In this document: one piece after another, positions 7,614 through 13,106 of the stretch
How the letters are laid out: each line of letters starts with the position of its first letter
How positions within the stretch are numbered: the first letter of the stretch is position 1
Virus record (IMG/VR): IMGVR_UViG_3300030098_006570
Location: 1-64,000 of that record
DNA: 64,000 nucleotides
Source: a virus
Strand: one strand, 5' to 3'
Made by a program: the position numbers and the translations under genes
Notes under the pieces: model-generated
The model's input: only the letters and a program-made list of their open reading frames with translations
What the model was told of the DNA's origin: nothing
The model's database searches: none

Positions 7614-8735
7614 CTATTCTTTATCTACGTCGTAGAAATCTGCGGCACTTCCCTCTCGCACATCAAACTTGCGAATGATCTCTTCATCCATAATCTCGAA
7701 CACTCGGGATCTGAACTTCTCATCTTGGAGTTTAGAAACCCAATGAGCGCTCTGGAACTTCTCTTCCGTGCCATCCTTATGGACAAGCGCAAACCATGCG
7801 CCAGCTTGCTTCACATTATCCGAGCCCTTGACTGCTTCCAGCCAACTCTCTTGATCTTGAATACCCACCTCGTCGGTGCCCCAGAGAATCTTGAAGGCGC
7901 AGTTGCGACCCTGTGTTCCAAAACGCGACTTCTCCAGCTTGACCTTCACTTCGGAGCCGATGCGGAAACCGCTCTCGTCTTCGATAAATGCGGACTTGGC
8001 TTTGCGTCCCGTCAGCCATACCCGGAGAGAATATACATAATGCATAGCCTTTCCGCCTGGGGTGATATAGGGTGTCGTCATTGCGACGATGCGTGCGTTA
8101 GGTCCCTGTGGAATATTGGTCTTTAGCTGGTTGAGAACCAGGAAGGCAGACTTAGTATTGGCAATGGGGATTGTTAGTTTAGACATTCCCTTGGAGAGAA
8201 TGCGTGCCTTCATTGCCATCGTGGATTGGGGATTAAAGTCCCCCTCCACGTCGGACACAGTAGGAGTCAGAGCCAGCGAATCCCAGATAAATAGCGTTCG
8301 TTCTGCCCCGGAAGCCAATACAGCTTCGACGGTTTCGAGAACGTGTTCCACCGATTGGGCCTGGACATAGATCAGTTCATCTAGATTACATCCGGTACGC
8401 TCAAGGAATCCTGGGTCAATCGCTGACTCTGAATCCATATACACCACATTCATACCCATCTTCTGGGCATTGGCGGCGCACTGTGCTGCCATAAAAGATT
8501 TGCCGGTTGATTCCAAACCAGCAATCTCCGTAAACTTGCCGACGGGAATGCCTGCAAGTTGGCCGCGACAAATGATAGAATCCAACCACCGCGACCCGGT
8601 TGGAATCCATTCTGTTACTTCTGTAGGATTCGCTTCCTTCAGGTTGTGGGCGACTTCCACACCCGAAGTTTTGTTGATTAAAGTTCGCAGACCATCAATT
8701 GAAATCTTGCCTGCTTTTGACTTACTTTTTGCCAT
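7614..8735 (-). CDS. recA: RecA/UvsX recombinase
   Basis: IPTGS, Walker A GLESTGKS, DSESAID, WDSL, NQL, TPGGKAM and KSRFG motifs. Confidence 0.92.
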   Translation of the reverse strand: MAKSKSKAGKISIDGLRTLINKTSGVEVAHNLKEANPTEVTEWIPTGSRWLDSIICRGQLAGIPVGKFTEIAGLESTGKSFMAAQCAANAQKMGMNVVYMDSESAIDPGFLERTGCNLDELIYVQAQSVEHVLETVEAVLASGAERTLFIWDSLALTPTVSDVEGDFNPQSTMAMKARILSKGMSKLTIPIANTKSAFLVLNQLKTNIPQGPNARIVAMTTPYITPGGKAMHYVYSLRVWLTGRKAKSAFIEDESGFRIGSEVKVKLEKSRFGTQGRNCAFKILWGTDEVGIQDQESWLEAVKGSDNVKQAGAWFALVHKDGTEEKFQSAHWVSKLQDEKFRSRVFEIMDEEIIRKFDVREGSAADFYDVDKE

Positions 8736-8877
8736 CGAATCTCTCTCCATATCTTTCGTAAATTTCGTCTCTCACATCCTTGTGGAGACTAGCCACATGG
8801 TCGCGGGTTTCCTGTAGTTGGCGCTTTAACTCCAACATATAACAAATTATAATAGCTAGAGCTAGCGCCGTCCACAT
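8722..8877 (-). CDS. Small hypothetical protein with N-terminal hydrophobic segment
   Basis: Manual translation MWTALALAIIICYMLELKRQLQETRDHV...GKK (51 aa); fills the gap between neighbours. Confidence 0.5.
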   Translation of the reverse strand: MWTALALAIIICYMLELKRQLQETRDHVASLHKDVRDEIYERYGERFDGKK

Positions 8878-9054: not shown

Positions 9055-9279
9055 CTAGATTACGAATTCTTGTTCAGTAATAATCAACGAGCCTTCGTTG
9101 ATCAATCTTTCATAGTGACTATGATACCCTAAAAGGCTCACTGTGTCAACTACTATTTTGCGCATTGCTTCAGATTTTCCGGTAATGATACGAAGGGGCA
9201 GCTCATTGTTGTACACAAAACTATGCACTTGTTGAACCACCCCTTCGTGTCGCATGCCGTGTAAATCCAGCGTTTTCAT
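9055..9279 (-). CDS. Stand-alone Smr (small MutS-related) domain protein
   Basis: TLDLHG...LRIITGKS motifs. Confidence 0.7.
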   Translation of the reverse strand: MKTLDLHGMRHEGVVQQVHSFVYNNELPLRIITGKSEAMRKIVVDTVSLLGYHSHYERLINEGSLIITEQEFVI

Positions 9280-9806
9280 CAATTAAGCGTTAGAGTACCG
9301 TTCTTGGTCTTTACGGAAACAACAAACCCTTTCACCAGCGTGTCGGCGGAGAAGAACGTATAGCGCAAGTCCTTGGATTCCTCAGCAGCCACTAAATCAC
9401 CCACGCGGATCTGAACCTGCGTAGAGATATCGCAGCGGCCACGCTTATAATCGTACTGCTCCGTCGAATACTCTAGAGAATACTCACCCTCATAGATGGT
9501 CTCCTGAAGTTTCTCTGTCAGATACTCATCAAACCACCCCTCGTAATCATAGTCTTCGAGCAGGCCGTTAAACCGCATCTCACTAAGAATATCATTACCC
9601 TGAGCAGGAGAACCCCAGCTGCTATAGACTGGAATTCCAGAGGCCAGCAATCCCGCCAATAGCGAAGCAGTTGAAGTCTCCGCCACACTATCATTGACAT
9701 AACTGTCAGTGCAATGCCATACATCATTGCCCTCAGTGTAACTCAACGTTACATAATCATCGTCCGCTACATTTAGTTCGCGAAGTGTATTCACAAAATC
9801 ACCCAT
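9279..9806 (-). CDS. Hypothetical protein
   Basis: 175 aa ORF with GGGAG SD; its stop overlaps the next start. Confidence 0.7.
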   Translation of the reverse strand: MGDFVNTLRELNVADDDYVTLSYTEGNDVWHCTDSYVNDSVAETSTASLLAGLLASGIPVYSSWGSPAQGNDILSEMRFNGLLEDYDYEGWFDEYLTEKLQETIYEGEYSLEYSTEQYDYKRGRCDISTQVQIRVGDLVAAEESKDLRYTFFSADTLVKGFVVSVKTKNGTLTLN

Positions 9807-9833
9807 TTTAAACTCCCTTTCTGTGTGATAAGT

Positions 9834-9865
9834 TGAGACCCCTGTATCCCCGGGCCTCCCTGCGG
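9834..9865 (-). repeat. Repeated 5'-UTR stem-loop element, copy 1
   Basis: CCGCAGGGAGGCCCGGGGATACAGGGGTCTCA; stem GAGGCCC/GGGTCTC. Confidence 0.75.
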
Positions 9866-9875
9866 ACGGTAGAGT

Positions 9876-10064
9876 CTACCTTGCGTTCTTAGTCTCTTGG
9901 ACCTCAACGCGAAGCTCCTGAGCCAGCGTCTTCACCTCTTGCATAGCCTTACGAACACGGGTTCCCGCAGCGTTGTTACCGCTGGCGAAAAACTTATCAT
10001 GATCCGTACGGGTTTCTTCAAGAAGCGTAATCAGCTGTTCAAGTCGATTCGTTGTAGTAGTCAT
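9876..10064 (-). CDS. Histone H1-like Hc1-family nucleoid protein
   Basis: KFFASGNNAAGTRVRKAMQEVKTLAQELR matches the Hc1-family core. Confidence 0.8.
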   Translation of the reverse strand: MTTTTNRLEQLITLLEETRTDHDKFFASGNNAAGTRVRKAMQEVKTLAQELRVEVQETKNAR

Positions 10065-10081
10065 AACTCTTCCTTTCTATT

Positions 10082-10114
10082 TGAGGCCCCTGATAACCCT
10101 GGGCCTCCCTGTGG
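10082..10114 (-). repeat. Repeated 5'-UTR stem-loop element, copy 2
   Basis: CCACAGGGAGGCCCAGGGTTATCAGGGGCCTCA. Confidence 0.8.
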
Positions 10115-10123
10115 GTCAAAAGT

Positions 10124-10327
10124 TTACTTCTTCTGAACGAAGGCGTAAAGCTTTTCAGCTTCACCAATCACATCTTCAGTCGTATAGGCTGCAACGGAGG
10201 TCCGCTGGTCTTCGGGCTTAAAATGTTCATTCTCAACTTGACGATTCGTACGATCCGCCACAATGCCAATTGCCATTCCTAGCAAATCGGTGCGGAGTTC
10301 GTATCCGCTCTTGTTAGTATCACTCAT
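10124..10327 (-). CDS. Small hypothetical phage protein
   Basis: 67 aa (GYELRTDLL...AEKLYAFV); AGGAG SD. Confidence 0.7.
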   Translation of the reverse strand: MSDTNKSGYELRTDLLGMAIGIVADRTNRQVENEHFKPEDQRTSVAAYTTEDVIGEAEKLYAFVQKK

Positions 10328-10355
10328 AATATTCTCCTTTGTGTGTGTATAAGTG

Positions 10356-10388
10356 TGAGGCCCCTGATAACCCTAGGCCTCCCTGTGG
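10356..10388 (-). repeat. Repeated 5'-UTR stem-loop element, copy 3
   Basis: CCACAGGGAGGCCTAGGGTTATCAGGGGCCTCA. Confidence 0.8.
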
Positions 10389-10508
10389 GGGGGATTTTTT
10401 CCCAGTCTTTTTTGAGCAAGCAGGATCTGCTCTTCAAGGTATCTTATCATTCTACGATAAGACTCAATCTCCTTAGAGAGGAGATCTTTCTCGCCCGATG
10501 ACGGCATC

Positions 10509-11279
10509 CTACAGGGCACCCAACTCTGCAAAGGCTGCATCAACAGCATTAGCATCGTCGCCCTTCTTGCCGTACTTCGTGGTCTCGCTGCTAACCGTTT
10601 CCGGGTCACTGACCTGGGAGTTAACAAAGTTATCAAGGATCGTCTGCACATCGGCAGTCGTCTTGCGCTCGAACAGTCCAGTGAAGTCTGGAATACTTTC
10701 GAGCAGATCGGCACACTTGTCAGGCGTCATGTCCTCGCAGAGGTTGGACGAACGCCGTCGAGGCACCAGCTTGGTCTGCGGGAAGGATGCTCCCGGGGGC
10801 TTGCCGTAGGTCAGCGTCAGGTCGGTGCCAGTCTCGGTATCGGTGATGTCACCGTACTCGGGGTTCAGGACCAGGGTCAGAAGGTTCTCATAAGCCATCT
10901 TGCCGTAGCCCCAGACACGCACACCCTTCTCTTCCTCGCCACGCACCATGACGGGACTGAAGAATCGCTGGCGAACGAAAAGGCTCTTGGCGGTCTTCTT
11001 ACTGTGCTCATCGTTGTTGTCAACGCCTTCGCGCCAAAGCTGCGAAGCAAACTCGCAAACGGGACAGTCGTCACTGTGGTTGCGCTTCGGGCACAAGAAG
11101 CCGCCCTTCTCAAGGTTGTAGTGGAACCACATCTCCTTGAAGGGATCGCCGTCTGGTGTCGGTACGATCCGAATGTCCTGGTCGCCGTCTTCGGGGCGCC
11201 AGAAAGTGTCATTTGAGGAGTTTCCTTCTCCGCGTAGCGACGAGAGCTTTTCCCTCATCTTGTCTAGATTGATACCCAT
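10509..11279 (-). CDS. Single-stranded DNA-binding protein (T4 gp32-like)
   Basis: FWRP, HY..CPK..CPVCE, YGDITD..G.D motifs; acidic C-terminus ending AFAELGAL. Confidence 0.8.
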   Translation of the reverse strand: MGINLDKMREKLSSLRGEGNSSNDTFWRPEDGDQDIRIVPTPDGDPFKEMWFHYNLEKGGFLCPKRNHSDDCPVCEFASQLWREGVDNNDEHSKKTAKSLFVRQRFFSPVMVRGEEEKGVRVWGYGKMAYENLLTLVLNPEYGDITDTETGTDLTLTYGKPPGASFPQTKLVPRRRSSNLCEDMTPDKCADLLESIPDFTGLFERKTTADVQTILDNFVNSQVSDPETVSSETTKYGKKGDDANAVDAAFAELGAL

Positions 11280-11338: not shown

Positions 11339-11366
11339 ATTATAACAGGCTGTTTCTATATGTCAA
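11339..11366 (-). promoter_or_regulatory. sigma70-like promoter for SSB operon
   Basis: TTGACA-16nt-TATAAT with TG extension; TGTTAT-A-ATAACA palindrome over the -10. Confidence 0.7.
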
Positions 11367-12270: not shown

Positions 12271-13106
12271 TACTTCTCCATTTCTAATGCTGTCTGAACC
12301 AGCGACGTATATTGAATACAATAACAATATTTTTGTTCGTAGTTAGTCTGAAAGACGCCGTAAGAGACGTTCACTTTTTCCTTAACTTTGGACTTCACAA
12401 ACTGTGTTATTTGCTTGAATAGTGAACCGTCCGTCCTCAAGTCTTCCTCACTAATACCATAGTAGTATACCATGTCCCGCGGCTGTGTCAAGTCATAAAA
12501 CCACTTCTCTTTCTGCTCCTCAAGATTGAGCACTCCAACGGTTGCAATTCGAGCTGTAGGAGCCGTAGCAATAAAGTTTCCTAAGACCGCTGTACTGTTG
12601 CGAAAAACATTGAGCATATGAAAGGTATTTACAATAGCTTGGTTAAGCACCTCAAAATACCCCATAATCGGAACCTCTCCAATTCCTTGCTCCAACATTG
12701 TATTGTCCAGAAGATACAGCATATCCACTCGGCCGCTGCGGGCATATTCCTGTAGCACATGGCGAGTGATACGCTCCTGCATTTGCTGCGTTTCGCTCAG
12801 CAGTTCTACATCGGGCTGGATGTACAAAACGCTGGTTCGGTGACCCCGTATTTGCTCTAAAAGACGCAGGGTTCCTCCCGAAATATCGCCCCCTCCGCAA
12901 AGTACCACATAGACATCCCCGTCTGCTAACGACAGCCGTCGCTTGAGCGACGGGAAGTTCGCATCATACTCCTCGTGAGAGGAGCGACTCTTAATGGTGA
13001 TATCGGCGGAGGAGCACGTATCAATCCCATAAGTGGTATACTGAGGGAACTTGGCAAAGGCCCGTGCAACGTTTACTCCAGCCTGTCCGAGGCCTATAAT
13101 GTTCAT
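12270..13106 (-). CDS. Divergent tubulin/FtsZ-superfamily protein (PhuZ/TubZ-like)
   Basis: N-terminal IIGLGQAGVNVA, GIDT, degenerate signature CGGGDISGG, LLDN...LNQAIV. Confidence 0.6.
   Translation of the reverse strand: MNIIGLGQAGVNVARAFAKFPQYTTYGIDTCSSADITIKSRSSHEEYDANFPSLKRRLSLADGDVYVVLCGGGDISGGTLRLLEQIRGHRTSVLYIQPDVELLSETQQMQERITRHVLQEYARSGRVDMLYLLDNTMLEQGIGEVPIMGYFEVLNQAIVNTFHMLNVFRNSTAVLGNFIATAPTARIATVGVLNLEEQKEKWFYDLTQPRDMVYYYGISEEDLRTDGSLFKQITQFVKSKVKEKVNVSYGVFQTNYEQKYCYCIQYTSLVQTALEMEK

Follow-up and report, generated by a model that had tools for sequence, protein, structure and literature searches.

A candidate family of intercistronic RNA hairpins at the 3′ end of gp32-type SSB genes in uncultured marine T4-like phages

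The element described here, referred to as E, is a real structured RNA that has been selected as the folded sense strand. It represents an uncatalogued RNA family, well supported by covariation, of the known kind of intercistronic, cis-acting hairpins, and is situated at the 3′ end of gp32-type SSB genes. The window, meaning the whole stretch of DNA analysed, comprises the first 64 kb of a 148,084-bp IMG/VR record that is estimated to be 82% complete, and it holds three copies of E on its minus strand. E is fixed at one place within the replication and recombination gene block of abundant uncultured marine T4-like phages, where it marks the site at which these phages parted the SSB gene from the recombinase gene, two genes that cultured relatives keep abutting. 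The same site is the point of insertion of accessory genes, among them Hc1, FKBP-like genes, methyltransferases and tRNAs. E provides a short diagnostic marker of this phage clade in metagenomes.

The three copies and their operon

The features of the window that concern E are as follows, in the order in which they would be transcribed.

11339..11366, minus strand: consensus sigma70-type promoter of the SSB operon (TTGACA, 16-nt spacer, TG-TATAAT)
10509..11279, minus strand: gp32-like SSB gene, the cistron anchoring E in all relatives (PF08804, E=8.5e-14; phrog_1192)
10356..10393, minus strand: E1, with a C-run lead containing CC-A-CAGG, loop AGGGUUAUCAG and a 3′ A (covariance model, 66.9 bits)
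10124..10327, minus strand: orf67, an accessory gene between E1 and E2 that is missing from many relatives
10082..10115, minus strand: E2, with lead CCC-A-CAGG and loop AGGGUUAUCAG (covariance model, 62.5 bits)
9876..10064, minus strand: Hc1 histone-like gene between E2 and E3 (PF07432, E=3.5e-21)
9834..9866, minus strand: E3, with lead UCC-G-CAGG and loop GGGGAUACAG (covariance model, 56.3 bits)
9279..9806, minus strand: orf175, the gene 3′ of E3, with no E of its own after it
7614..8750, minus strand: UvsX/RecA recombinase, directly 3′ of E in the commonest (base) architecture of relatives

The minus strand thus carries the promoter, SSB, a possible 44-codon ORF, E1, orf67, E2, Hc1, E3 and orf175, followed by a weak Smr-like ORF, two small ORFs and UvsX/RecA. 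The gene names assigned in the original prediction were upheld for the gp32 family (PF08804) and for Hc1 (PF07432), the Smr match being weak. Because a promoter scan predicted no strong minus-strand promoter downstream of that of SSB before position 9149, E1 to E3 would be internal to one polycistronic early transcript, and the SSB-to-UvsX block is predicted to form one early operon. Two more near-consensus sigma70-type promoters were found on the minus strand, each with 11 of 12 matches. One (12464-12491) precedes a 283-aa gene (13121-12270) that has no Pfam or PHROG match, and the other (9121-9149) lies inside the Smr-like ORF, upstream of the small ORFs preceding UvsX.

All three copies of the ~33-nt element that had been predicted were located on the minus strand. 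E1 consists of a lead (10393-10382), a 7-bp stem (10381-10375 with 10363-10357) and an 11-nt loop, with U-G at pair 7. E2 is composed of a lead (10115-10108), a 7-bp stem (10107-10101 with 10089-10083) and a loop of the same length, while E3, the variant found after Hc1 in relatives, has a lead (9866-9859), a 7-bp stem (9858-9852 with 9841-9835) and a 10-nt loop, with G-U at pair 4. Their consensus is a lead CC-R-CAGG, a stem GAGGCCY/RGGYCUC enclosing the loop, and a terminal A. From the end of the stem to the next ATG there are 29 nt for E1 and orf67, 18 nt for E2 and Hc1, and 28 nt for E3 and orf175. The lead starts 8-10 nt past the upstream stop codon for E2 after orf67 (8 nt) and for E3 after Hc1; E1 lies 120 nt past the SSB stop.

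A chance origin of these copies is excluded. A 30-nt degenerate pattern matched twice against 0.00 expected, and a gapped stem pattern matched all three sites against 0.12 expected. Across the whole 148,084-bp record, pattern searches returned exactly three copies (none in the reversed control) and the covariance model found only E1 to E3. As had been noted, the stem differences pair as G-U on the minus strand alone, and in E1 and E3 the opposite strand would have C-A mismatches. The reported lack of a U-tract also holds for each copy and, with no T-run after E1-E3 and no minus-strand terminator listed by a terminator scan at E, the element is not a plain terminator. Although the hairpin appears in minimum-energy folds, the single-sequence z-scores (0.5, -1.8 and -1.9) are unremarkable, and for this reason the case for structure rests on relatives.

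The 44-codon ORF (10373-10507, minus strand) takes up the 120 nt from the SSB stop to E1, and its TAG stop falls within the E1 stem. By tblastn this ORF was found at the same position in ~5 relatives, giving the order SSB, ORF, E. Most relatives do not have it, and E there is 6-9 nt past the SSB stop.

The 5′ UTR of SSB (11329-11294, minus strand) contains a conserved hairpin of its own, with an 8-bp stem (11329-11322 with 11313-11306) that occurs at the same position in loci L004-L197. Its stem covaries richly by eye, as in ACGAUCAG/CUGAUCGU, AAAGUGA/UCACUUU and AAACUCGG/CCGAGUUU. The loop is GAWAUUNG, followed by a single-stranded tract (ACUNUAACCC...AAGGAG) that reaches to the AUG. By analogy, this hairpin looks like a counterpart of the autoregulatory leader of T4 gene 32. 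Kissing between the E loop (GGGUUA) and the UAACCC of this UTR was considered and rejected, as the two are complementary in the window's clade but do not covary in distant clades.

Structure of E across its relatives

Two approaches were used to collect relatives. In IMG/VR, a scan guided by the SSB protein identified 207 related loci, from which 80 (82-93% identity) were retained, and a DNA-pattern scan for E gave at least 119 stretches, a set biased towards conserved copies. A covariance model picked up weaker copies that the patterns had missed; a loose hairpin pattern returned hundreds of false positives. Three alignments were drawn up, namely A1 (150 distinct copies), A2 (78 diverse copies) and a third set, A3. 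The conservation in viromes that had been proposed as a check was in this way confirmed, the element being present in relatives.

Over more than 200 copies in A1 to A3, the 7-bp stem is paired in 99.6-100% of cells. In A1 this figure is 99.9%, and no shuffle or slid register came near it, even though the pairs themselves vary: pair 6 is A:U in 90 copies and C:G in 59, pair 4 is G:C in 77 and G:U in 73, and pair 7 is C:G in 134 and U:G in 16 (n=150 in each case). In the more diverse A2, 99.6% of cells are paired and double compensatory changes occur at four of the seven pairs, these being pair 1 (G:C to A:U), pair 2 (A:U to G:C), pair 7 (C:G to U:A) and pair 6. RNAalifold predicted the same stem independently on A2, and in A3 the stem is 100% paired. 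That the element acts as a structured RNA, as the original prediction had argued from wobbles in the window, is supported at the level of structure, because wobbles that suit the sense strand only are joined by compensatory changes in relatives.

Outside the stem, the sequence itself is preserved. The loop, described at the outset as conserved, is near-invariant across relatives: it is 9-11 nt long, of the form (R)GGG..A(U)CAG, with GGG kept on the 5′ side and A(U)CAG on the 3′ side. The lead (CC-R-C-A/G-GG) does not change, not even among the copies that diverge most. Steric considerations would allow a short pseudoknot in which the lead CC(C) pairs with the loop GG(G); among the 150 copies, the two pairs between the lead CC and loop GG never vary, and the third would be C:G in 111, U:G in 15, A:U in one and another combination in 23. 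A longer pseudoknot joining lead positions -4 and -5 with two loop U residues was rejected, as these are paired in only 42 and 30 of the 150 copies; compensatory cases, such as AGCCC with GGGCU in L193, are isolated and anecdotal. The lead purine is also linked to the first base of the loop (A with A in 91 copies, G with G in ~90, A with G in five and G with A in none). Both classes occur together in the window, and the linked purines may reflect a tertiary contact or two sub-types.

The stretch that varies least in E is AGGGAGG, a near-perfect Shine-Dalgarno (SD) sequence that has no start codon 5-9 nt downstream and is half enclosed by the stem. Variants with weaker anti-SD pairing are compensated within the stem, and thus it is the hairpin, and not ribosome pairing, that seems to be constrained.

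A few copies depart from the usual layout. One, at L202:1152-1210 on a 10.5-kb contig that holds four copies, has a loop grown to ~23 nt by insertion, with stem and lead intact. Two loci with SSB ~57-60% identical (L156 and L130) each carry two copies ~10 nt apart with no gene between, and the stems of these tandem copies have the variant AGGGCAU/AUGUCCU.

Position, gene content and distribution

Although the original prediction had taken E for a 5′-UTR element of three genes, its constant feature across ~250 loci is one copy just after the SSB stop. Among about 203-207 unique contexts, the gene upstream of E is SSB in 129, Hc1 in 28 and orf67 in 14, and the lead begins 6-9 nt past the upstream stop in 152 of 203. 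The downstream gene is far more varied (Hc1 in 66, UvsX in 34, orf175 in 32, orf67 in 17, an FKBP-like gene in eight, and many singletons, of 207 contexts), with the next start codon 18-34 nt from E in 161 of 193 contexts, or about 80%. The commonest architecture is SSB-E-UvsX (32 loci). Arrays reach four copies, as in SSB-E-Hc1-E-orf175-UvsX or the SSB-E-orf67-E-Hc1-E-orf175 series of the window, and all copies are confined to the SSB-UvsX interval. E is in this sense a single-locus element, with one to four copies per phage. Near-complete relatives of 165 and 204 kb have one copy each, after SSB, and a 194-kb relative has a strong copy after SSB and a weak second one after Hc1.

Since the pattern scan is biased towards conserved copies, an additional sample was drawn blind to E, through the SSB of a clade 42% identical to that of the window. 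In this sample, exactly one copy was present directly past the SSB stop in all 53 loci with downstream sequence. E is ~83-92% identical while the SSB protein drops to 42-66%, a comparison that carries an ascertainment bias and for which the E-blind clade is the unbiased check; overall, the values are ~80-90% for E against ~42-60% for the adjoining protein. Taken together, the comparisons indicate a base state of a single E, 6-9 nt past the SSB stop, as SSB-E-UvsX.

Several loci show what may follow E. In L187, E is succeeded after 10 nt by a canonical 8-bp hairpin with a T-run, a promoter (TTTACG-17-TATAAT) and then UvsX; a terminator and promoter are also present in its relative L085 and in L086, where the hairpin 3′ of E is GC-rich and carries seven T's. 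Three further loci (L123, L132 and L134) have a tRNA gene that begins 6-40 nt past E. Accordingly, E needs no downstream cistron, be it replaced by a terminator and promoter or by tRNA genes. The converse arrangement, promoter-E-gene with no upstream cistron, was not found in 207 contexts. When UvsX gains its own promoter, E remains at the 3′ end of SSB, and such contexts favour a function linked to where the upstream cistron ends.

The triplication in the window is a local by-product of accessory genes inserted between SSB and UvsX. It had been suggested that E coordinates abundant DNA-binding proteins; this does not hold, as the downstream genes in other phages include FKBP-like, methyltransferase-like and lipoprotein-like ones. 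The 5′ flanks of E travel with the upstream gene and the 3′ flanks with the downstream gene. In the window's clade, the loop variant GGGGAUACAG follows Hc1 in 25 of 27 cases regardless of the next gene, and where orf175 has another gene upstream the loop is GGGGUUACAG in four of four cases. These small numbers suggest that the heritable unit is a gene with its 3′ copy of E. The conditional entropy of the loop variant, at 1.15 bits given the upstream gene and 1.22 bits given the downstream gene, does not discriminate, and only the Hc1-specific AUA variant is informative for linkage to the upstream gene.

With respect to novelty, the Infernal search against Rfam that had been proposed as a check matched no family. 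Rfam 15 gave no match at gathering score in the 64-kb window, and at an E-value threshold the best hit in 9780-10520 was SorX, on the wrong strand and at 18.1 bits against the 46.6 needed. A blastn search of the locus against GenBank phages likewise gave no match. In a protein search, the closest SSBs of cultured phages reach at most 36% identity, and no E is present at their loci, the gap between SSB and recombinase being 8 nt in Microcystis phage Mel-JY01 and 2 nt in a Flavobacterium phage. Because these nearest cultured relatives share the synteny and not the element, E is regarded as an innovation of an uncultured marine clade. Among 185,579 prokaryote genomes (one per species), true copies occur only on phage-like MAG pieces with SSB, UvsX, orf67 or Hc1, and E is therefore not a host repeat. 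A REP or RAYT-type repeat was also ruled out, with one to four copies per phage, all at one locus. One such piece is L204 (CP070664.1, 'candidate division WOR-3 bacterium bin77 chromosome', 2248001-2256000), a phage-type SSB-E-UvsX block within a 2.85-Mb MAG, with SSB 61% and UvsX 72% identical to those of the window. Binning or scaffolding probably brought this phage sequence into the MAG, a prophage-like insert being less likely.

Function and comparison with known systems

The original prediction listed a protein-binding operator, a processing site or a stabiliser as possible functions. Of these, the processing site or stabiliser remains the best reading, and the operator becomes its main rival. 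It is tentatively proposed that E is a 3′-boundary and stability module of the SSB message that also offers shared homology for cassette swapping. Under this proposal, E would be cis-acting and transcribed within the early SSB operon, where it would mark the 3′ boundary of the SSB cistron. The message would first be cleaved, undergo RNase P processing if a tRNA is next, or terminate at a more distal point; the hairpin, perhaps locked by the short contact between lead CC and loop GG, by a bound protein or by both, would then halt 3′-to-5′ exonucleases. The SSB segment would in this way outlive the distal segment, so that one promoter could yield more SSB than UvsX or accessory proteins. As a second role, ~33 nt present in every phage of the clade would form a patch of shared homology at which accessory genes, each with its own 3′ copy, could be inserted or exchanged, giving the three copies of the window.

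Precedents exist for such an arrangement. The intercistronic hairpins of the puf and malEFG operons shield the proximal segment of their messages. In T4, the most stable message is that of gene 32, in which a conserved site for RNase E adjoins the stop codon (PMC3014915). A simple exonuclease barrier would not need the near-invariant loop and lead of E, and a specific partner or tertiary fold is therefore implied. Also counting against the stability reading are the spacing of E before the next start, which in ~80% of contexts corresponds to an operator distance; a UCUCC after E in a distant clade that is able to pair with the next SD (GGAGA); the unremarkable single-sequence z-scores; and the cultured relatives, which manage without E. 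Two low-depth contigs from RNA libraries in Logan match the window exactly (10146-10347 and 10336-10526) and are silent on RNA ends, strand and level; the second covers both the 3′ end of SSB and E1, and neither shows nor excludes an RNA end.

The main rival, considered unlikely, is that E serves as a translational operator for the next cistron in the style of the T4 gene 32 leader. Here E, folded as a hairpin or pseudoknot, would act as the nucleation site, and the 18-34 nt of unstructured RNA after it would contain the SD and AUG; a phage RNA-binding protein, be it free SSB or another, would bind E and either spread over the downstream ribosome-binding site or stabilise its occlusion, so that UvsX and the accessory genes would be tuned to the level of free SSB. 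The spacing in 161 of the 193 contexts fits this arrangement, as do spacers that are A/C-rich and, in most contexts though not all, unstructured. A conserved loop and lead also suit sequence-specific binding, the SSB 5′ UTR is similarly laid out with its hairpin and unstructured tract, and T4 gp32, gp43 and RegA all act as repressors that bind RNA operators (PMC3014915). In the L124 clade the 3′ flank of E is able to pair with the next SD. Within the SSB clade of L124, loci L209-L262 have UCUCC, CCUCC or UUUCC after the E stem, complementary to the SD GGAGA of a recombinase-like gene 4-6 nt further, and a small SD-occluding hairpin would thereby abut E. In the window, the 3′ strand of E has no complementarity to the local SDs. 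Gene context tells against the operator: the UvsX genes with their own promoter (L187/L085) lack E, which stays with SSB upstream of the terminator, and tRNA genes can follow E. Both types of context argue against an operator as the sole function. Additionally, no promoter-E-gene unit free of an upstream cistron is present among the 207 contexts, and the loop variant tracks the upstream gene, in the few informative cases. A search for RegA and RegB homologues in the 82%-complete phage record found none, and control genomes were equally silent. The stability and operator roles are not mutually exclusive.

A bolder form of these ideas, which we consider improbable, would make E a compact, sequence-specific RNA module, possibly pseudoknotted between the CC lead and GGG loop, of a new family that is read by a conserved factor, be it gp32-type SSB, the host ribosome or an RNase. 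It would set the SSB:UvsX ratio post-transcriptionally and double as a universal, integron-like adapter, free of integrase, through which the clade would capture and swap promoter-less cassettes.

Quite improbable is the view that E is mainly a DNA-level, evolutionary module, a portable homology block akin to PeSL or attC for the capture and exchange of cassettes with little or no role in expression. Extra copies are found solely in the variable SSB-UvsX interval, where they bracket accessory genes, and the flanks switch with neighbouring genes, as expected of crossovers inside E; the higher identity of E relative to SSB points the same way, subject to the ascertainment bias and its unbiased check. 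A precedent is given by PeSL (PMC4122927). However, insert-free genomes keep a single copy, which would have nothing to recombine with within the genome, and the compensatory stem changes and strand-specific G-U pairs denote selection on the folded strand of sense polarity. Nor is any integrase or HUH-type enzyme implied.

A role in transcription, whether as a factor-dependent attenuator or terminator with no U-tract or as a put- or nut-like antiterminator RNA, is very unlikely. The stem is GC-rich, lower-GC relatives often have a U-run starting 4-6 nt after it, and the position of E just upstream of canonical terminators (L187, L085 and L086) would be plausible for an antiterminator. In the window, however, the stem adjoins no U-tract, and the same phages terminate with canonical hairpin-plus-U7 terminators; because relatives place these ordinary terminators after E when terminating, E is not itself the terminator. 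One copy ~850 nt from the promoter is unlike the placement of nut or put, and the RNA-library contigs run through E1, a weak argument. A stimulator of stop-codon read-through or frameshifting was dropped, since the stop spacing of 6, 7, 8 or 9 nt covers all three phases and leaves no reading frame conserved across E.

The CsrA/Rsm-type site that had been suggested is scarcely credible. Such sites expose GGA in a short hairpin's loop and are usually joined by another at the SD. Although AGGGA is found at the lead/stem junction of E and the E3-type loop has a GGA, the GGA that never varies is base-paired at the foot of the stem, the commonest loops (AGGGUUAUCAG and GGGGUUACAG) have GGG and lack GGA, and no second site overlaps the SD.

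Among known systems, the cis-elements of T4 gene 32 are close in setting. An operator of this type is an H-type pseudoknot followed by an unstructured A/U-rich tract that reaches the AUG. In the T4 message, a 5′ pseudoknot operator is accompanied by a conserved RNase E site, which lies at +831 and adjoins the stop codon (PMC3014915). Like E, these elements accompany a gp32-type SSB gene in T4-like phages and place structured RNA beside unstructured RNA, the level of the T4 message being controlled post-transcriptionally, and in both cases a conserved element is found near the SSB stop codon. In contrast, E shares no sequence or Rfam similarity with them and is 3′ of the gene and not in its leader. 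The hairpin of E is proven, whereas its pseudoknot, SSB binding and RNase E cleavage are putative, and the separate SSB 5′-UTR hairpin of its clade is the likelier counterpart of the T4 operator. Should the partner of E be SSB or an RNase, the post-transcriptional paradigm of T4 gene 32 would extend to a new element and a new position.

The PeSL of T4-like phages consists of a sigma70-type promoter next to a stem-loop, with the SD and start codon after it, and is present in many copies across hyperplastic regions (PMC4122927). Both PeSL and E are repeated, intergenic stem-loop elements among small accessory genes that provide, or in the case of E may provide, homology for the insertion, deletion and swapping of ORFs (PMC4122927). 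Unlike PeSL, E has no -35 or -10 boxes, with no promoter-like site in the three spacers, and it is found at one locus only, where a single copy is kept even in the absence of inserts. Its copies are associated with gene insertions, yet these occupy one interval per genome, in contrast to the multi-copy distribution of PeSL. Membership of PeSL was rejected on the lack of sigma70-type boxes beside E.

The STAB-SD and polypurine 5′ stabilisers of Bacillus and phage SP82 offer a third comparison. As in E, with its AGGGAGG, an SD-like stretch occurs with no start codon 5-9 nt downstream; that of E differs in being half buried in a stem, where weakening variants are compensated.

The proposed function of E resembles that of the intercistronic, mRNA-stabilising hairpins of the Rhodobacter puf operon, the malEFG REP of E. 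coli and pap. These are, like E, stable hairpins free of a U-tract that lie between cistrons after a highly expressed proximal gene, and the effect proposed for E is the same, in that the proximal segment is spared from 3′ exonucleases. They are kept mainly as structure or as genome-wide repeats, whereas E, across phages with SSB proteins diverged to 42% identity, belongs to a single locus and retains a near-invariant loop and lead.
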